Source: Pseudomonadota bacterium
Lineage (GTDB): Bacteria; UBA10199; 2-02-FULL-44-16; JBDRGF01
Assembly (NCBI GenBank): GCA_043818055.1
Contig: JBDRGF010000127.1
Location: forward strand, 1-28,227
DNA length: 28,227 nt
Direction: 5' to 3'
The first letter of the stretch is position 1. Each line of letters begins with the position of its first letter. The notes below the pieces were generated by a model. The model searched no databases and had not been told where the DNA came from. It worked only from the letters and a program-made list of their open reading frames with translations. A program made the position numbers and the translations under genes. Below are positions 2,863 to 27,561 of this stretch, piece by piece.

Positions 2863-2906
2863 ATTTCTAAACTTACGCACTTAAACACTTCTACACTCAA
2901 ACACTT
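2863..2906. repeat. Octamer tandem array (ACTTAAAC/ACTTCTAC family) directly after the aclA stop
   Basis: atttctaa acttacgc acttaaac acttctac actcaaac actt; same family as 18504, 19115 and 19653. Confidence 0.8.
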
Positions 2907-12078: not shown

Positions 12079-12666
12079 TTAAACGCCCGGTTTAGTTTTA
12101 GAATCGTTTTGCAAATGCTTTATTGAACATTCGATATCGTAATCGAGCCTCACCTTTCCATCCTTTTCCACAGTATCCGATTTAACGAGTTTGACATTGG
12201 CAAACAAAGGACTCTTGTCCAGCACATCCAGAAGGTTTGCCAGTGAGCTTTGATCGATGGTCTGTCCGGTTGCCTTCATCTTAGGATTCTTACCGTCGGT
12301 TGCGCTCAGTGAGTTTAACCAAACTCTCTGAGGCAGGTTATCTGAAAGGGTGTTCAACACCTTCGACCAGAGTATGCGTTGATCGAAGTCCTTGAAGATA
12401 TCCTCTTTATTCCCCCTTTTATTGACATCGATACCGCTCTCCGTAGCCTTCCTCTTCAATTCGTAATTCAGTGTTTCATTTTTAACGACATCGCCCTGAA
12501 GGAGGGATAATCTCAATTTTTGAACTATCCCGAATAGCAGCATCAGGGAGATGCACCCGCCCGCGATGACCAACATCATCCTCCGGTCGAGCTTGAACTC
12601 TCTGATGTTGACAATCTCCATCAGTTGACTCTTGAGATCTTTATGTTCCGCAAAGTTTATGTGCAT
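12079..12666 (-). CDS. pilN: PilN-like protein
   Basis: HINF start motif, TM helix, WSKVLNTLSDNLPQRVWLNSL, SPLFANVKL. Start ATG 12666 (the upstream ORF extension is repeat-derived). Confidence 0.8.
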   Translation of the reverse strand: MHINFAEHKDLKSQLMEIVNIREFKLDRRMMLVIAGGCISLMLLFGIVQKLRLSLLQGDVVKNETLNYELKRKATESGIDVNKRGNKEDIFKDFDQRILWSKVLNTLSDNLPQRVWLNSLSATDGKNPKMKATGQTIDQSSLANLLDVLDKSPLFANVKLVKSDTVEKDGKVRLDYDIECSIKHLQNDSKTKPGV

Positions 12667-12679
12667 AAAATAATCAAAA

Positions 12680-12768
12680 GCGCATGTAGCATGTAGTATG
12701 TGGCATGTGGGCAAAAATTTGCTTGAAGGGTTTTTTACTACATACTACATGCCACATGCTACATACGC
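12680..12768. repeat. Inverted heptamer element (CATGTAG/CATGTGG), 31-bp arms, between pilM and pilN
   Basis: gcgcatgtagcatgtagtatgtggcatgtgg ... ctacatactacatgccacatgctacatacgc; the six arm mismatches are all transitions. Confidence 0.9.
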
Positions 12769-12778
12769 CTTTCTCTTT

Positions 12779-13801
12779 TCAATCCACTGCCAATCCACAT
12801 GCTACTGCAAACAACGCCTTGCTATTCTTTAACATCTCCATGTCTGAACTCTTCACATTTATTTTTTTAAAGGGATTAAATATTTCAACTGGAACATTCA
12901 AATTTTTATTCAAAAATTCTTTCAGCTCTGTGTAATAAGCACCTCCGCCACATAGGCTTATCTCGCTTATGTTTTTCTTGCCAAACATTTGGGTGAAACC
13001 ATCGAGAGATCTTTGTACTTCAAGGGCGAAACGGGAGTAGAAGTGAGAGATGGTGTTCTTTAAAACGGAGTTCTGTTGTTCACTCAATTCGTGTTTGACG
13101 GCACCGCCGACACCAAAATATGAATCCTTTATCTCACCCGCTTTTTCGCTATCGGTGCCTATGTCCCTTGCGATCTGAGCTATCAGATTACTGTCAGCGC
13201 TCCCGGCAAGCGGTCTTGAAAATAAAAAACCTCTCTTTCCCATCACCACAAAAAGCGCATGGAAACTTCCGATATCAATAATGATATTGTAATCCTCTCT
13301 TGAAACTCCACTGCAATTGTCAAAGATCGAAGCTATCGCCGAGGCGTTTGGTTCAATTATCTTTGGATAGGCGAGCCCGATCTCTTTTGTAAAGTCAACA
13401 CATGCCTTTATAGCATCGCGTTTTATGGCGAAGACGATCAGTGGTATCTTATCGCTCAATTTCAAATCTTCGGTGTTTATCCTCGTATATCTGAATTCGT
13501 AATCTTCGACACTCCCTGCTACAAATTTTCTACACCCCCATTTGACCGCCTCGTTCAATTCAGCGTCTGGCATCTGGGGAAGGTCGAGCCGCCTGATCCT
13601 GAGCGATGGATTTTCAATGTTGATGCGCACATCCTTGGTTTTAATGCCGGCCTCTTTTATAAATTTCGCAATCTGTTCTTTTTTTTCATCGCATGAAAGA
13701 AATCCAAAAGCTGTGAGCTTATATCCATTGATCCCTGTCTCGAGACAGACGACCTTTAAATTTTTAGTCCCTATGTCGATGCCGATTGTGGTTTTAAACA
13801 T
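12779..13801 (-). CDS. pilM: PilM-like actin-fold pilus assembly protein
   Basis: IGIDIG, LPQMPDAELNEAVKW, IIDIG, EVQRSL, LCGGGA, NPF, VACGLA. Start ATG 13801. Confidence 0.88.
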   Translation of the reverse strand: MFKTTIGIDIGTKNLKVVCLETGINGYKLTAFGFLSCDEKKEQIAKFIKEAGIKTKDVRINIENPSLRIRRLDLPQMPDAELNEAVKWGCRKFVAGSVEDYEFRYTRINTEDLKLSDKIPLIVFAIKRDAIKACVDFTKEIGLAYPKIIEPNASAIASIFDNCSGVSREDYNIIIDIGSFHALFVVMGKRGFLFSRPLAGSADSNLIAQIARDIGTDSEKAGEIKDSYFGVGGAVKHELSEQQNSVLKNTISHFYSRFALEVQRSLDGFTQMFGKKNISEISLCGGGAYYTELKEFLNKNLNVPVEIFNPFKKINVKSSDMEMLKNSKALFAVACGLAVD

Positions 13802-13816
13802 ATAAAAACCGTCGTT

Positions 13817-13893
13817 CGTGAAGCGTAAAGCGTGCAACGTAAAACGCAAAAAAATATTCACGCGCTTCACGCTTCACGGGCGGACGCTTCACG
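13817..13893. repeat. Inverted heptamer element (CGTGAAG / CTTCACG) between the TPR gene and pilM
   Basis: cgtgaag cgtaaag cgtgcaa cgtaaaa cgc ... cttcacg cttcacg ggcggacg cttcacg. Confidence 0.88.
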
Positions 13894-15982: not shown

Positions 15983-17923
15983 TCATCCGTCAGGCGGTGT
16001 GAAGTTGCCTGTCGATTTTGTCGATCCATCACTCATTATGAAGGTGATGTTGAACGTGCGCCCGCTCATATCGGAGTTGAAACGAATACGGGTTATCGGG
16101 CGAGTTTGCGATGCTGAAAGGGTCACATTAGAGATGTTCAGATTTGATCCTGAACTTGCGCTGCCAGTCCAGACGTTAGAGTTGGAGACACGTATAACAC
16201 TGAGTGTACGGGATGGTGATGTCGGTGTCCAGCTGACTATAACCCTGTCCCAGGTGATCGTTGATGATCCAGTGTTGGTTATTGTTATTCCTCGCAAATC
16301 CTTATCGCTCCCCCCCCCAATGTTTGCACCAGAGATGTCAACCGAAAGAAAATCGGCCTGTGTTGAGGAGGTGGGTGTAAATGTAACAGATTTAGTCGTG
16401 CCATCCGACATCGTAAATTCCAATGTGAATTCTAATCCAGGTGTAATCGTATTATTAAAACCCAGACTGGTGATATCCCTGGCGCCATCCCCATCTCTCA
16501 AATAAATTCCGTTATCACCAAAGGAGACGAGCGTCCCACTGGAGGCATTGCTCGAATAGGTGTTGGAACCATCTGTATCCTCAATAATGCTCTGTTGTAG
16601 GCGCCTGCCGCCTTCACCGCTCCACGACATGGTGAGGCCGGTCATGCCGATATCCGCTGCACAGGTGTTTTCTATGGTAAGGCCGAGGATGTTCGTGCCG
16701 CTTGCTACAGCAGAACTTGTATCGATGGTTAAACAGTTCTGTTGACTGGCATTGAAGAGATCGAGCGATGTCGCTTTAGATGTGCCATCGACAAATGTCC
16801 ATATGATCGAATAGTTGCGTCCCAGCATATCTGCGTCAAACGCAAAGTAATTTGCTGTATAGGTCGATGAAGCCGCGTAGAGGTCGTTGCTAATATCTAT
16901 TAGCACACCGCTTCCTGCAGAACCGCCATAAATATTCGTCCCATCTATTCTAACAGTGTTCAGATTGCTTGATGGCGATGTAGGCGTCCAGCTGACTGTC
17001 ATCTTGTCAAGAATGATAGCTTCAGCACATGTGTTTTGGACTGTAGTCCCTGTCAATTGGCTCCAAAGGCTGCTATTCCATGTGAGCCTTGCACTTCCCG
17101 TATTCCATTGAAAACATGCAGCCTGATTATCGGCCAGAAAATTCACATCGACAACCTTTTCGTAATCGGAGCCATCATATGTGTAATGAAAGTGGAGTGT
17201 AAAATTGTGATCAGACATGTTCGTACTCCACCTGATGTCTGTTATATTATGAGCTGCAAAATCGTTGATGGTGTAATTGTTTGAAAAATTGACGCTTCCA
17301 CCGGATGCGGCTGACCCTGAAAATTCGGTAGGGTTACCTGCTATCCTGACGCGGACTAAACCCTCGCCAAGATCGGGCTCCCATGTCGTTCCTGACATTG
17401 CTGTGATAGTGAGAGGAAGAGAGCAGCTCGCATCCCTGCTCAGGGTTAAACCCTCCAACTCCCTGTTCGAAATGCCGGCACCAGTGGTATCGACATTCAG
17501 GCAATCGCCTGATGGAGGATTTGGATCGTTGATCTCAACTAAACTCCTCGCGTTCTGCTCAGCAGATGAAACATTAATTTTTCCAGCCGTCCTTGTGATA
17601 TTGACAGTCTCGCCGGAGAACTCTCTCGAAACTGAACTCCCCGACCAGCCATCGGTGATAATCTGCCCGAGCGCAAATTCCATGCCGAACTGAGATGAAT
17701 AAAAGGCCTGATCCCCTGTGACCTGCTGGATTCTCAACTGCTGATTGTATGATGAAAAATATGCGATGCCGAGACCCAAAGCGCCAAGCACAAATACAGC
17801 GATAATGGCAGCGATGACGGCAAAACCGGGCGCGCTATGTGCTATGCGCCATGCGTTGTGCGTTGAATGGGCTTTTCTGTTCAGCGTAGTTTCTAGAAAA
17901 AGTATTTTAAAAAATAACCTCAT
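15983..17923 (-). CDS. PilX/MshP-like minor pilin fused to four ~125-aa beta-rich repeats (putative tip adhesin)
   Basis: G|FAVIAAIIAVFVLGALG (no Glu5), QAFYSSQFGMEFAL PilX-like motif, four internal repeats. Start ATG 17923 is inferred. Confidence 0.72.
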   Translation of the reverse strand: MRLFFKILFLETTLNRKAHSTHNAWRIAHSAPGFAVIAAIIAVFVLGALGLGIAYFSSYNQQLRIQQVTGDQAFYSSQFGMEFALGQIITDGWSGSSVSREFSGETVNITRTAGKINVSSAEQNARSLVEINDPNPPSGDCLNVDTTGAGISNRELEGLTLSRDASCSLPLTITAMSGTTWEPDLGEGLVRVRIAGNPTEFSGSAASGGSVNFSNNYTINDFAAHNITDIRWSTNMSDHNFTLHFHYTYDGSDYEKVVDVNFLADNQAACFQWNTGSARLTWNSSLWSQLTGTTVQNTCAEAIILDKMTVSWTPTSPSSNLNTVRIDGTNIYGGSAGSGVLIDISNDLYAASSTYTANYFAFDADMLGRNYSIIWTFVDGTSKATSLDLFNASQQNCLTIDTSSAVASGTNILGLTIENTCAADIGMTGLTMSWSGEGGRRLQQSIIEDTDGSNTYSSNASSGTLVSFGDNGIYLRDGDGARDITSLGFNNTITPGLEFTLEFTMSDGTTKSVTFTPTSSTQADFLSVDISGANIGGGSDKDLRGITITNTGSSTITWDRVIVSWTPTSPSRTLSVIRVSNSNVWTGSASSGSNLNISNVTLSASQTRPITRIRFNSDMSGRTFNITFIMSDGSTKSTGNFTPPDG

Positions 17924-17973
17924 AATTTTTAATCTCAAGGCGCAAAGCTCACAACGCATAGCTCATAGCGCAC
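17830..17973. repeat. Inverted heptamer element (GCTATGC family), 33-bp arms enclosing the start codon of the PilX-like gene
   Basis: gcgcgctatgtgctatgcgccatgcgttgtgcg (17830-17862) pairs with cgcaaagctcacaacgcatagctcatagcgcac (17941-17973). Confidence 0.85.
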
Positions 17974-18513
17974 TTATTGAAATCCTGCATACGCGCTTGA
18001 AAATGGGCGGGGGAAGATCTGATTCCTCACACGCACAGCGCCGTAGCCGGTTCCTGCGCCGACAACCAGCTCAAAACCGATTCTTCTTATATCTGCCTGA
18101 GATCCTGCTGTGTTTCCATCCTGATTCAGATATGTGAAGGCGAGAGAGGAAATTCCGCTCGCCAATACGACGCCGCTCCTCTCGAGGTTTGTCCCGTTCA
18201 ATGAATAGTTGATATTATTTTCAGTAGGAAGATCGAACTGAACGACAGATGCCGTCCATGTATCGATTGAAGCGGTCGCAGGGATGAGTAAAATTTCAGC
18301 CCCCATCCTCTCCATGGCAAGGCGCGCCTGGGCTAGAGCAGCCTTTTGTCTCACCGCTAACGCGTATTGCCTGACACCTGATGAAATCACAGGACCAAGG
18401 AGTCCGGCAAGAATGCCGACGACAGCGATCGCCAGCACCATCTCGACGATGGTGAAACCAGAAAAGCCGTGAAGCTTTGAATACTCGTTTTTTCTTTTTA
18501 TTAACTTAAACAC
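17974..18513 (-). CDS. Minor pilin (MshO/PilW-like)
   Basis: G|FTIVEMVLAIAVVGILAG, ARLAMERMGAEI; start GTG 18513 behind AGGAG. Confidence 0.85.
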   Translation of the reverse strand: MFKLIKRKNEYSKLHGFSGFTIVEMVLAIAVVGILAGLLGPVISSGVRQYALAVRQKAALAQARLAMERMGAEILLIPATASIDTWTASVVQFDLPTENNINYSLNGTNLERSGVVLASGISSLAFTYLNQDGNTAGSQADIRRIGFELVVGAGTGYGAVRVRNQIFPRPFSSAYAGFQ

Positions 18514-18538
18514 TTCTACACTCCTACACTTAAACACT
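18504..18538. repeat. Octamer array containing AGGAG RBS and GTG start (copy 1)
   Basis: acttaaac acttctac actcctac acttaaac act. Confidence 0.88.
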
Positions 18539-18542
18539 GCTT

Positions 18543-19124
18543 TTATGGCATTACATATTCCGCAATCAACGTCTCGAGCTTTACGCTCTCGGTTGCGCCA
18601 CTCCAGCTCACAACAGTTGTAACCCTTGCATATCCGGAGCCTGGCGCTGGATCCAGAAAATCATCGGTGCTGTTATCGTCATCAGGGTCAACTTCCAGTA
18701 TAGTCACGTTTCTTGTGTATGCGCTGAAATTTCCGGGGAGCTGTCCATCGGAGTAACCCCCGGCGTTTGCAATCACGTAGGCGTATCCCTTGTTTGCCCT
18801 ATCTGCTATAACTTGTTCGAGTTTCTCCTTTGCAAGATTCGAGGCGACGACTGTTTCGTTAGCGACAAGTGAAGATCTCGCTCCGCCGCTGAAGACAAAC
18901 ATAATACCAATAAGCCCCACACCGACGATCGCAAGCGCGAGTATGGCTTCGAGGAGGGAAAGACCGGAAACGCCGTGAAACGCTTGCCCCGTCGAATGAC
19001 TTGGGGTGAAGCGTGAAGCGCTTGCCCCGCCGAATGGCTTGGGGTGAAGCGTTGAGAACCTGTTTTTTATTAACTTAAACACTTCTAAACTTCTACACTT
19101 AAACACTGTTTTTAACTTAAACAC
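18543..19124 (-). CDS. Minor pilin (MshD/PilV-like) with 54-aa repeat-derived leader
   Basis: G|LSLLEAILALAIVGVGL, ASNLAKEKLEQV, VTTVVSW; start GTG 19124 behind AGGAG. Confidence 0.85.
   Translation of the reverse strand: MFKLKTVFKCRSLEVFKLIKNRFSTLHPKPFGGASASRFTPSHSTGQAFHGVSGLSLLEAILALAIVGVGLIGIMFVFSGGARSSLVANETVVASNLAKEKLEQVIADRANKGYAYVIANAGGYSDGQLPGNFSAYTRNVTILEVDPDDDNSTDDFLDPAPGSGYARVTTVVSWSGATESVKLETLIAEYVMP
18975..19051. repeat. (GTGAAGC)4 array carrying two 24-bp hairpin inserts, inside the prepilin leader
   Basis: gtgaaac g[cttgccccgtcgaatgacttgggg]tgaagc gtgaagc g[cttgccccgccgaatggcttgggg]tgaagc. Confidence 0.9.
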
Positions 19125-19139
19125 TTCTACACTCCTACA
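19073..19139. repeat. Double octamer array containing AGGAG RBS and GTG start (copy 2)
   Basis: acttaaac acttctaa acttctac acttaaac actgttttta acttaaac acttctac actcctac a. Confidence 0.88.
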
Positions 19140-19140
19140 T

Positions 19141-19662
19141 TTATTGTATCGCCACCCGCCCTGTGACGGCGGTTACGGAGATTGTTTTGGTCAGCGAGCC
19201 GTCGGTGATCTGGACGCTGCCCCCACCTCCTGTAGTGGGAGCACCCAGTGAATTGAATTCGACGGTGTAATCGCCGCCTGTTATCGAAACACCGGGCCAT
19301 TTTGGAAAGGTCTCTATCAGATTTTCTTTATCGAGAGGGCTTTGTACCGGAGTTCCGACTGTAGTTTCATAGACCGTATATCTGTCATTAGCGTCATCGA
19401 AAAAGACGCCAAACGTCGTACCCCGCTTTGTCATCGCGAGGCTTCTCGCATGTTCGATATCCGAGCGCACCTTCTCCGAGGCTATCACTACATATGACTC
19501 TTTGATATTGTATATTTTACTGATTGCAGCAACAGCGAGAATGCCGATGAGCGCAATTACAAGTACGAGCTCGATGAGGGTAAAGCCGAAAATGCCGTGA
19601 AGCGTGAAGCGTGAAGCGTGAAGCGTCGAGCGCCTGTTCTTCCTTTTTACTGACTTAAACAC
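19141..19662 (-). CDS. Minor pilin (MshC/FimT/GspH-like)
   Basis: G|FTLIELVLVIALIGILAV, SDIEHARSLAM, FNSLGAP, ISVTAVTGRV; start GTG 19662 behind AGGAG. Confidence 0.88.
   Translation of the reverse strand: MFKSVKRKNRRSTLHASRFTLHGIFGFTLIELVLVIALIGILAVAAISKIYNIKESYVVIASEKVRSDIEHARSLAMTKRGTTFGVFFDDANDRYTVYETTVGTPVQSPLDKENLIETFPKWPGVSITGGDYTVEFNSLGAPTTGGGGSVQITDGSLTKTISVTAVTGRVAIQ
19597..19631. repeat. Perfect (GTGAAGC)4 plus one degenerate unit, inside the prepilin leader
   Basis: gtgaagc x4 (19597-19624) then gtcgagc; encodes STLHASRFTLH. Confidence 0.92.
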
Positions 19663-19679
19663 TTCTACACTCCTACACT
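19653..19679. repeat. Octamer array containing AGGAG RBS and GTG start (copy 3)
   Basis: acttaaac acttctac actcctac act. Confidence 0.88.
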
Positions 19680-19686
19680 GCTTTTA

Positions 19687-20109
19687 TCATCCACAAGTTG
19701 CTGCGACATATGCGAATGTTCCACTCGCGGTGCTGTATTGATAGTATGAGTTGTCTCCGCCGTCGGTGTACTGATAGCAATCGGCGTCCACCTTGGTCCA
19801 ACCTCTTGTAACTCCACCTTTGACGATTGTGCTGAAGCACTGATTCGCCTGAGAACATGCCGTTGCGTCGGCAACAGCATCGAGGGTTGCCGGATATGAC
19901 TCGGCATTTCCTTGCGAAATCTGTGATGCAGCATATAGGGATAGACCTGTCTGCACCGCGCCTACGACTGCGTCGCGCGCATTGGTCCTCGCGGTTGTAA
20001 GACTGATGTTGAAGATGTTGGGAAGTGCTGCGACAGCCAATATTCCCAAGAGTGCGATCACTAAAACAAGTTCGATCAATGTAAAACCCTTTGTGCTTCT
20101 GAGATTCAT
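19687..20109 (-). CDS. Probable major type IVa pilin (MshA-like), 140 aa
   Basis: MNLRSTKG|FTLIELVLVIALLGILAVAALP; strong AAGGAGG RBS; four Cys in the head domain; first of the pilin series. Confidence 0.88.
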   Translation of the reverse strand: MNLRSTKGFTLIELVLVIALLGILAVAALPNIFNISLTTARTNARDAVVGAVQTGLSLYAASQISQGNAESYPATLDAVADATACSQANQCFSTIVKGGVTRGWTKVDADCYQYTDGGDNSYYQYSTASGTFAYVAATCG

Positions 20110-20143
20110 AAAATTCCTCCTTAAACTTAAAAAATTATTATTA

Positions 20144-26102: not shown

Positions 26103-27491
26103 TTATAAAAGATATATATCCTCTAATGAGTAAAACCTGATCTCTGGGAATTTTTTATGCTCTTTGATAGTTTCCCTGCTGAATATTCTTCCCTGGATTG
26201 TTAAATTATCATCGTTAGGATATTTTCTTATTTTACTCCGTAGTTCATTGACCAGTTTATTTGTGGATTTTATCCCAGTCCATTTGCATTCGCATATATC
26301 GATTCCTTCTTTTTTGCGATGACCCACAACATCTATTTGAAGGCATTTATCCCAATACTCACCTATTTCGAAATCGCCATAGATGCCCTCAGTTAAATAT
26401 GCCCCAGCTAGCGCTTCGCGGCAAAGATTTTCGAAACAAGTTCCAAAATAGCTATCGATATAAGGTTTGACCAAATTTTGAAATGCGTCTTTTGCATTAA
26501 CCTGAGGGATATAGGCTGTGTTTGGGTATACAAAACGAAACCAGAATTTTAAGAGAGCATCATCTATGATGAACCTAACATTCTTAGAGGAATGTCTTTG
26601 TGTCAATAGAGGATAGCGTCTGCGCACATAGCCCAAGGCTATGAGCTGTTCGATATAGTAATACAATTTTTTTTCTTCAATTCCCGTCACTTTTGAAATA
26701 TCAAAGTAGGTAAGTGAACCGGCAGCCAGGCTCGTCAGTATCGCATAATACTTCTGTAACTCTCTTAACTCCTCTTTTAATAGAAAGTCTGCCTCTCTAT
26801 AAAGAGCTGAAAATTCACTAAAAAAATTCTCCTCAATATTTTTAAATATAGATTTATTTTCTGAAAAAAAGAGCAAGTAAAAGGGAACTCCACCACATAC
26901 AAAATAAGCCTTTGCTTTGTCTTTATAGGACCAGGATGGAAAAAAATCTGCAGCGTCTTTATAGTTGAACGGTTTTAATAAAATCTGTGCTGTCCTTCTG
27001 CCGAAAAGAGGGCTTTTTTCACCTAATATCTCTTTTTCCATAAATCCCATATATGAACCACAGATGATGAGCATGATATCTTTTCTTTTTTTCCATTCAG
27101 TATCTATAAACTCCTGCAAAATTGATATTAAATCTGGACTTGTCTCAGCCAACCATTGAAATTCGTCAAACACTACAACCATTTTTTTGTCAGTTTTTTT
27201 GTGCTTGACTATAAGTTCCAACGCCTCTTTCCAGTTATCGACCCTGCTATTTGCGATGAGTGGTTGAGAGTAGGTATTTGACAGAATATCCAGGAATTCT
27301 CTGATTTGTAGTTGTGGCGTTGATTTTTTTCCAAGCAGATAAATAGAAGGTTTTTTTTCTATAAAATGTAATATCAATTCACTTTTACCAATCCTCCTCC
27401 TGCCATAAACAGGTATGAATTCGCTTTTGGAAGAACCGTAAGCGTTTTCGAGCATAGTTAATTCATTTTTTCTACCAACAAATTTATTCAT
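26103..27491 (-). CDS. Archaeal-type AAA ATPase with wHTH and C-terminal DUF234/PD-(D/E)xK-like domain
   Basis: FVGRKNEL, Walker A YGRRRIGKS, Walker B VVFDEFQ, ICGS, SPLFGRRT, GGVPFYL, FWFRFV, FE, QIDVV...ECKW. Confidence 0.88.
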   Translation of the reverse strand: MNKFVGRKNELTMLENAYGSSKSEFIPVYGRRRIGKSELILHFIEKKPSIYLLGKKSTPQLQIREFLDILSNTYSQPLIANSRVDNWKEALELIVKHKKTDKKMVVVFDEFQWLAETSPDLISILQEFIDTEWKKRKDIMLIICGSYMGFMEKEILGEKSPLFGRRTAQILLKPFNYKDAADFFPSWSYKDKAKAYFVCGGVPFYLLFFSENKSIFKNIEENFFSEFSALYREADFLLKEELRELQKYYAILTSLAAGSLTYFDISKVTGIEEKKLYYYIEQLIALGYVRRRYPLLTQRHSSKNVRFIIDDALLKFWFRFVYPNTAYIPQVNAKDAFQNLVKPYIDSYFGTCFENLCREALAGAYLTEGIYGDFEIGEYWDKCLQIDVVGHRKKEGIDICECKWTGIKSTNKLVNELRSKIRKYPNDDNLTIQGRIFSRETIKEHKKFPEIRFYSLEDIYLL

Positions 27492-27517
27492 TCTCGGCCC
27501 TTTTTGATGTTTGTCCT

Positions 27518-27561
27518 ATCATGCCTTGACAAGTCTAAACTTGTCAAGTCTAAACTTGGCA
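27518..27561 (-). promoter_or_regulatory. Putative sigma70 promoter overlapped by a palindromic/tandem operator
   Basis: Minus-strand TTGACA (27547-27542), 18 nt, CATGAT (27523-27518); 15-bp tandem unit CTTGWCAAGTCTAAA x2.5 forming CTTGACAAG-N6-CTTGTCAAG. Confidence 0.6.

Follow-up and report, generated by a model that had tools for sequence, protein, structure and literature searches.

The window analyzed here, a stretch of 28,227 nucleotides, makes up the whole of contig C127; the genome, G000, comprises 2.93 Mb with 43% GC. The window contains a minus-strand type IV filament operon that includes the repeat-bearing pilin genes of main interest here. The first part of the operon encodes a PilB-like ATPase, a PilC-like protein, two small genes, the major pilin and three minor pilins, referred to here as P1, P2, and P3, and the rest encodes a 646-residue pilin-like protein (P4), an AAA ATPase, a TPR protein, PilM, further assembly genes and a secretin. 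T2SSE, T2SSF, secretin, and PilM were all detected in the window, so that the pilin genes have the assembly-gene neighborhood expected of prepilins, and a prepilin peptidase (PF01478) is encoded on contig C60. A search of the window against Rfam returned no family.

The major pilin-like gene, pilA (19687..20109, minus strand), has an ATG start, a strong Shine-Dalgarno (SD) interaction (-11.9 kcal/mol), an 8-residue leader free of repeats and a TIGR02532 match of 29.6 bits (cut-off 16.3). Following it on the same strand are P1 (19141..19662), a GspH/FimT-like protein matching PF12019 above cut-off (26-residue leader, 147-residue mature protein), P2 (18543..19124), a PilV-like protein whose TIGR02523 score of 30.1 bits is below the cut-off of 52.2 (54-residue leader, 139-residue mature protein), and P3 (17974..18513), with a TIGR02532 score of 20.1 bits against a cut-off of 16.3 (19-residue leader, 160-residue mature protein). 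P1 likewise exceeds the TIGR02532 cut-off and P2 has no match to that model. The three leaders end in glycine and are rich in lysine, arginine and serine, and the mature sequences begin FTLIE, LSLLE, and FTIVE, that is, with a hydrophobic stretch bearing Glu5. These are the properties by which PMC10191384 defines a class III signal peptide (hydrophilic leader with a Gly or Ala end, followed by 20–25 hydrophobic residues, usually with Glu5), and the same source reports prepilin leader length to be variable. A fourth pilin-like gene, P4 (15983..17923, minus strand), starts at the ATG at 17923, has a 33-residue leader that contains a repeat arm, which the initial annotation missed, and continues with G|F and a hydrophobic stretch lacking Glu5; a profile search found no pilin family match for it. 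Inverted heptamer arms of a further family flank its ATG (17838..17972; folding z -3.8), the downstream arm being within the leader.

P1, P2, and P3 are each preceded by an identical 25-mer on the minus strand (19653..19677, 19115..19139, and 18504..18528, respectively), an exact match that 100 shuffles did not produce once and that has exactly three copies in the 2.93 Mb genome, all of them here. The 25-mer comprises three octamer units plus a T, and the same units form a non-coding minus-strand array after a citrate-lyase-like gene, which we place at 2872..2903 and which has no AGGAG. In each pilin copy an AGGAG is followed after 7 nt by a GTG that is in frame with the pilin: AGGAG 19670–19674 and GTG 19662 for P1, AGGAG 19132–19136 and GTG 19124 for P2, and AGGAG 18521–18525 and GTG 18513 for P3, where the 25-mer is part of a four-unit array (18504..18536, minus strand). 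The leaders then read, on the minus strand, through CTTCACG heptamers, four of them in P1 (19596..19623), four in P2 (18974..19049), two of which are broken by 24-nt hairpin inserts (19020–19043 and 18982–19005), and a single one in P3 (18468..18474), to the common endings HGIFG, HGVSG, and HGFSG. The 24-nt hairpins belong to a separate dispersed family with six further look-alikes in the genome. The P2 leader also contains a second, internal octamer array (19074..19105, minus strand) with the layout of the P3 array and no AGGAG. Each leader is thus a hybrid whose upstream-type and downstream-type arms come from two different repeat families.

The 25-mer, its AGGAG-7nt-GTG and the leader endings agree with the initial annotation, as do the leader lengths of 26, 54, and 19 residues against 8 for pilA. 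It had further pointed out that the leaders differ by multiples of 3 nt, which is true, yet automatic for any set of in-frame starts; the informative quantity is the number of heptamers (4, 4, and 1). Its account of the length of P2 also requires a linker shorter by 6 nt (24 vs. 30 nt), giving 26 + 16 + 14 - 2 = 54 residues.

No in-frame ATG occurs in any of the three minor pilins from the in-frame stop upstream to the site of cleavage, again as had been claimed. The array GTG has an SD energy of -7.0 kcal/mol, compared with a genome median of -6.6 (values computed with the canonical anti-SD, whose core is carried by the 16S of this genome), and is the sole SD-backed ATG, GTG or TTG in each leader. 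Further in-frame GTG codons occur at 19106 and 19082 in P2 and at 18537 in P3, all without an SD, and an in-frame ATA occurs at 19070 in P2 and 18501 in P3; these codons score from 0 to -0.9.

The start regions were compared with those of orthologues. A GTDB scan found four orthologues at 64–70% identity, plus the distant locus L070, which was excluded, and a metagenome scan found homologues that are only 27–45% identical. Among the nearest orthologous loci, four carry names, and two of these are titled as Deltaproteobacteria MAGs from groundwater. The 60 relatives compared include none of the same family, and the order of events proposed below is therefore a reconstruction. At the eight closest syntenic loci (G056, G001, G040, G029, G025, and L067–L069) neither the octamer nor the HGxxG ending is present; leaders there are mostly short and begin with ATG, with an overlapping GTG for P1 in two and a TTG for P3 in three. 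Other repeats do enter orthologue leaders, namely a heptamer arm in P2 of L069, a palindromic element in the 42-residue P2 leader of L067, 9-mer units that supply the ATG of P3 in G056, and paired arms in a leader of the more distant G038. The mature proteins are conserved, and the columns invariant among orthologues are kept at 23/23 positions in P1, 24/27 in P2, and 20/20 in P3 (40/41 in pilA).

Of 62 loci examined, 61 yielded pilin N-termini by pattern detection, 184 in total (this leaves aside our own loci as well as L070 and the duplicate L066; the set has some near-duplicate loci and a few doubtful flags), and 21 of these N-termini were flagged for periodic repeats. The 163 unflagged N-termini have an ATG within 15 codons in 124 cases, only a GTG or TTG in 23, a more distant ATG in 13 and no start in three, and the flagged ones have an ATG in 20 cases. 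The remaining flagged case is P2 of G056 (L002:1935-2069), with eight heptamers and no open ATG, GTG or TTG start: its in-frame ATGs are closed by a stop, and another ATG misses the frame by the length of a heptamer. This gene is a candidate for a broken or switched-off copy, or for an assembly error.

These data bear on whether translation of the minor pilins might begin elsewhere, at an ATA after the array, at one of the other GTG codons, or through ribosomes that re-initiate on leaving the upstream gene or short out-of-frame ORFs, the SD-GTG being then a by-product. An in-frame ATA follows the array in P2 and P3, and in P2 of G056 as well; only 16–29 nt separate the upstream stop from the GTG, just before which short out-of-frame ORFs terminate; several orthologues use a GTG or TTG that overlaps the upstream gene; and the lack of an obvious start in 1/21 repeat-flagged and 3/163 repeat-free N-termini indicates that other starts or broken genes occur. 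Against these points, the SD energies of the ATA and other GTG codons are negligible, P1 has neither kind of codon, and coupling would most simply bring ribosomes to the same array GTG. We consider a start elsewhere unlikely.

The initial annotation took the repeats to be a standard translation-start cassette. The genome has 46 octamer arrays of at least three units (search with a unit list; one count per arm where two arms form an inverted pair), 42 of which are outside the P1–P3 leaders. Since the units repeat every 8 bases, AGGAG-7nt-GTG results wherever a TGTAGGAG unit has two further units behind it, and that combination is present in 11 of the 42 other arrays, where six yield a single residue and five yield 3–20 residues. 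No gene is opened by any of the 11, the longest product being 20 residues, compared with all three at the pilins. In three other octamer arrays a GTG is in frame with a gene that has an ATG further on. As more than one residue results from only five of 42 arrays, an open, in-frame AGGAG-7nt-GTG is roughly a 4% event per array; three independent events of this kind are unlikely, which points to selection acting as a filter, to copying, or to both. Copying is favored by the common terminal unit order, which is unique to P1, P2, and P3, by the P1 and P3 linkers, which are of equal length and identical at 19/30 positions (25/25 in the 25-mer), and by the common leader ending. The three cassettes look, from their sequences, like descendants of one module. 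The designation as a standard cassette is therefore not supported: its spacing is automatic in an 8-base array, it is missing at the eight closest loci, and its copies appear to have a single origin.

As to constraint, the loss of AGGAG from the redundant internal array of P2 is a weak sign that the copies in use may be constrained. The P1 and P3 leaders differ by four synonymous and seven replacement changes, distributed 4/5/6 over codon positions 1/2/3, a pattern that points neither way on codon-level selection. Repeats occur in 4/10 pilin-type N-termini and in ~9 of ~2300 other ORFs, but these are hand counts that include non-independent paralogues, made with a filter that missed P3, and we do not rely on the associated p of ~1e-7.

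The families from which the pilin arrays derive are dispersed through the genome. Period-7 arrays number 263, against eight in one codon shuffle of the genome, and period-8 arrays 14 against none; 270 of 308 strict 7/8-mer arrays were classed as untranslated, a scan that still includes chance matches (a looser scan was noisy). The octamer pattern was present in seven of 60 relatives, and at the nine loci of these seven that have octamer arrays no frame longer than 50 residues opened from a GTG. Many short tandem arrays in excess of chance, mostly intergenic and patchy among relatives, as observed here, are what characterizes dispersed bacterial heptamer/octamer arrays. All five loci encoding PF05635 (four-helix-bundle) proteins have adjoining repeat arms, on both sides in four and with a contig end cutting the fifth, and matching arms flank the PF05635 ORF at C33, C10, and C159. 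Octamer-family arms stand on both sides of the C33 copy, and CTTCACG arrays come after the C76 copy. In C33 (37524-37810; L035:1443-1728) the octamer-flanked gene is apparently broken, its 5′ part and its Pfam-matching 3′ part being in different frames, and the downstream octamer arm directly precedes the ATG of what we take to be an Obg-like GTPase gene. The four-helix-bundle gene of the octamer family has an AGGAG 11 nt before its ATG. Two four-helix-bundle proteins, L031 and L032, scored 32.6 and 20.6 bits against the Avd model of diversity-generating retroelements (DGR), below its cut-off of 80.

It is feasible that the 25-mer is a selected control element, with a repeat-binding protein (e.g., a four-helix-bundle protein) or pairing of the octamer and heptamer arms setting a common low level of minor pilin synthesis. 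The 25-mer and its unit order are identical at all three minor pilins and nowhere else, and an intact 25-mer beside a diverged linker could reflect selection on the whole 25-mer as a candidate binding site. Predicted folds pair the octamer and heptamer arms over the SD (z -0.2, -2.3, and -2.4); opening the start region of P1 takes 16.6 kcal/mol, which ranks near the 95th percentile among 150 genes, and the cost for P2 and P3 falls to about 2 with a terminating ribosome. The Avd score of 32.6 bits, a weak match, could be counted on the same side. However, orthologues manage without the 25-mer and the same octamer units occur at 42 unrelated places, and we regard such control as rather improbable, if somewhat less so than a start elsewhere. 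Gating of the SD by a hairpin was rejected, as the opening energy did not exceed that of controls with the downstream sequence shuffled (reached by 10, 11, and 33 of 60 shuffles). A far-reaching version, in which the octamer arm is a portable start module and the native ribosome-binding site (RBS) of its four-helix-bundle gene, an Avd-like protein recognizes mRNA arms, the minor pilins share one translational control, and the system writes starts and leaders across many uncultured lineages, strikes us as a doubtful speculation.

DNA contigs from sequencing runs were examined across the cassettes of P1–P3. One run, X1, which may be the source sample itself, spans the entire P2 leader as well as the P1 25-mer and nearly all of the P1 heptamers, and runs X3 and X4 span the P3 cassette; all matched letter for letter with zero gaps. 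(One X1 contig has a one-base insertion at position 20128, upstream of the RBS of pilA.) A length of four repeat units is short for slippage. A reading of the arrays as slipped-strand phase-variation switches that turn the minor pilins on and off could draw on the four perfect 7-mers in the coding leader of P1 and on the ATG in P2 of G056, 106 nt from the cleavage site and shifted from the frame by the length of a single heptamer. Nevertheless, contigs of four runs have zero indels in any array (contigs drop rare variants), P3 has a single heptamer unit, the units of P2 are interrupted, and the sequence of P2 of G056 fits an in-frame ATG closed by a later stop just as well. Phase variation is, in our estimation, very unlikely.

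RNA contigs from one metatranscriptome (X2) match parts of the bodies of P1, P2, and P3; they carry no information on strand, level or start, and absence of cover is no evidence. One of them departs from the reference at 18523, within the P3 octamer array, with 30 letters off the reference. This departure, together with the resemblance of arm pairs flanking four-helix-bundle genes to the layout of 23S rRNA intervening sequences (IVS), could suggest that RNA processing takes out the stretch between the arms, or else that the three genes have been freshly silenced. No joints were present in the X2 contigs listed, none of which spans a whole leader. Moreover, excision would delete the sole start, and the mature parts are conserved to the same degree as in orthologues. 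We attach even less probability to excision or silencing than to phase variation.

Repeat arms adjoin other genes of the operon without being translated. A CGTGAAG/CTTCACG arm pair at the pilM junction (13804..13880) and a heptamer arm pair before a PilN-like gene (12661..12787) are both upstream of the ATG common to orthologues and serve as untranslated controls; unlike in these two genes, where both arms precede the conserved ATG, the downstream arm of P1–P4 is within the leader. A second pilin or pseudopilin cluster (C15:10909-12662, L079) has one leader with a single CTTCACG, and the arrays at its major subunit precede that gene's own RBS and ATG. Outside the pilins, a heptamer arm enters an apparent lipoprotein signal peptide (C38:9287-9320, L076) and a gene of the UmuC/DinB family (C56:7283-7314, L075) has its likely ATG inside a heptamer arm. 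A CheA-like protein (C36:22094-23229, L071) has two in-frame heptamer-arm cassettes in linkers, and in three paralogous histidine kinases (C73:5581-5704, C75:27794-27869, and C99:45940-46014; L072–L074) heptamer arrays are translated just past the ATPase domain. The earlier proposal that the repeats are tolerated because the peptide is cut off suits the leaders, but the same families are in frame in the uncleaved linkers of the CheA-like protein and the three kinases. Judged from these placements, the repeats follow a rule of permissive sites, and among such sites pilin leaders are used most.

We believe, with a probability of roughly two in three, that the arrays replaced short start regions, that ribosomes start at the array GTG and that prepilin peptidase removes the resulting longer leader. 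The core of the initial proposal, repeat DNA as start and leader, is in keeping, by inference, with the sole SD-backed start, the conserved mature pilins and the presence of a prepilin peptidase. Octamer and CTTCACG arrays from dispersed families would have replaced the start regions of three adjacent minor-pilin genes, with the insertions kept because a usable start remained. Initiation would take place at the AGGAG-7nt-GTG of the array, possibly aided by coupling over the 16–29 nt from the upstream stop, and cleavage of the longer leader would follow. The module may have arisen once and been copied among paralogous 5′ ends, or one donor may have been inserted repeatedly, and P2 probably acquired its second array and two 24-nt hairpins later. 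Selection would have been a filter retaining versions with an open, SD-backed start rather than the designer of a cassette, and the repeats at the pilin 5′ ends look like a tolerated insertion, not a purpose-built start signal.

Each ingredient of this arrangement is already known, in the form of heptamer arrays near starts, repeats carrying an RBS and start, mycobacterial MIRUs and in-frame Rickettsia palindromic elements (RPEs), and the pilin case appears to be undescribed: no description of repeat-derived pilin leaders was found in the literature searched, which consisted of main texts without supplements and included few subscription papers. TAACTGA-type heptamer arrays of Beggiatoaceae, cyanobacteria, and Bacteroidetes have 2–6 units, are mostly intergenic and are oriented near start codons (PMC4679880). 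The arrays described here are similarly short, of 7 bases and mostly intergenic, with a smaller share at coding-sequence ends; however, TAACTGA units have little SD character and precede the start, whereas here the 8-base unit holds both AGGAG and GTG and the heptamer arm follows the start. The text of PMC4679880 mentions neither "pilin" nor "four helix." Neisseria REP2 and Borrelia IR are dispersed repeats in front of genes that carry an RBS and start codon (PMC3184786). Those elements are long, with a promoter and an ATG, and a regulatory role has been reported for REP2, whereas the SD and GTG of the pilin cassettes arise as a by-product of tandem 8-mers. A supply of starts like that of REP2 may exist at the pilins, where the array GTG is the sole SD-backed start as judged from the DNA, but most copies do not provide one, as only the three pilin genes and none of the 11 other SD-GTG arrays do so.

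MIRUs resemble the pilin cassettes in being junction repeats that leave the downstream gene translated, but each MIRU contains an ORF that is coupled to the native start at a spacing of -4, whereas the pilins have lost the native start and carry the repeat as part of the protein (PMC12548453, PMC3184786). RPEs likewise are in-frame repeats tolerated inside proteins, yet they are about 150 bp long and encode a conserved peptide, in contrast to the short periodic arrays without a conserved peptide seen here, mostly in leaders and linkers (PMC10969869). Assignment to MITEs, RPEs or MIRUs, which would be fixed elements with terminal inverted repeats and a target duplication, was rejected, as the upstream and downstream arms belong to different families and the units vary in order and number; the relatives compared offer no close empty site. 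The association with PF05635 recalls the 23S rRNA IVS that carry a PF05635/TIGR02436 ORF (PMC4990558), in that the arm families flank PF05635 genes elsewhere in this genome. Unlike the IVS described there, the pilin junctions have no PF05635 ORF and have arms of two families, and no excision was seen in the RNA contigs listed; an IVS-type element at these junctions, which would have matching arms around such an ORF, was likewise rejected.

The pilin cassettes alone reveal no new mechanism. They suggest that repeat DNA can take the place of a gene's native start region with the gene probably surviving, and that several unrelated repeat families come to lie in prepilin leaders. They also carry a warning for annotation, since GTG starts inside repeats produce unusual N-termini without any frameshift. 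A broader question concerns the origin and spread of the 7- and 8-base arms tied to four-helix-bundle genes, and the pilin locus offers a small, testable reporter for the effects of arms on translation.

Repeats also occur elsewhere in the window. At the start of a Dus gene (208-254) there is a hybrid junction in which a CGTGAAG arm is followed by a heptamer arm of a different family, and a low-GC gene for an AAA/DUF234 ATPase (26103-27558) is preceded by a repeat with a 15-nt period (27525-27558).
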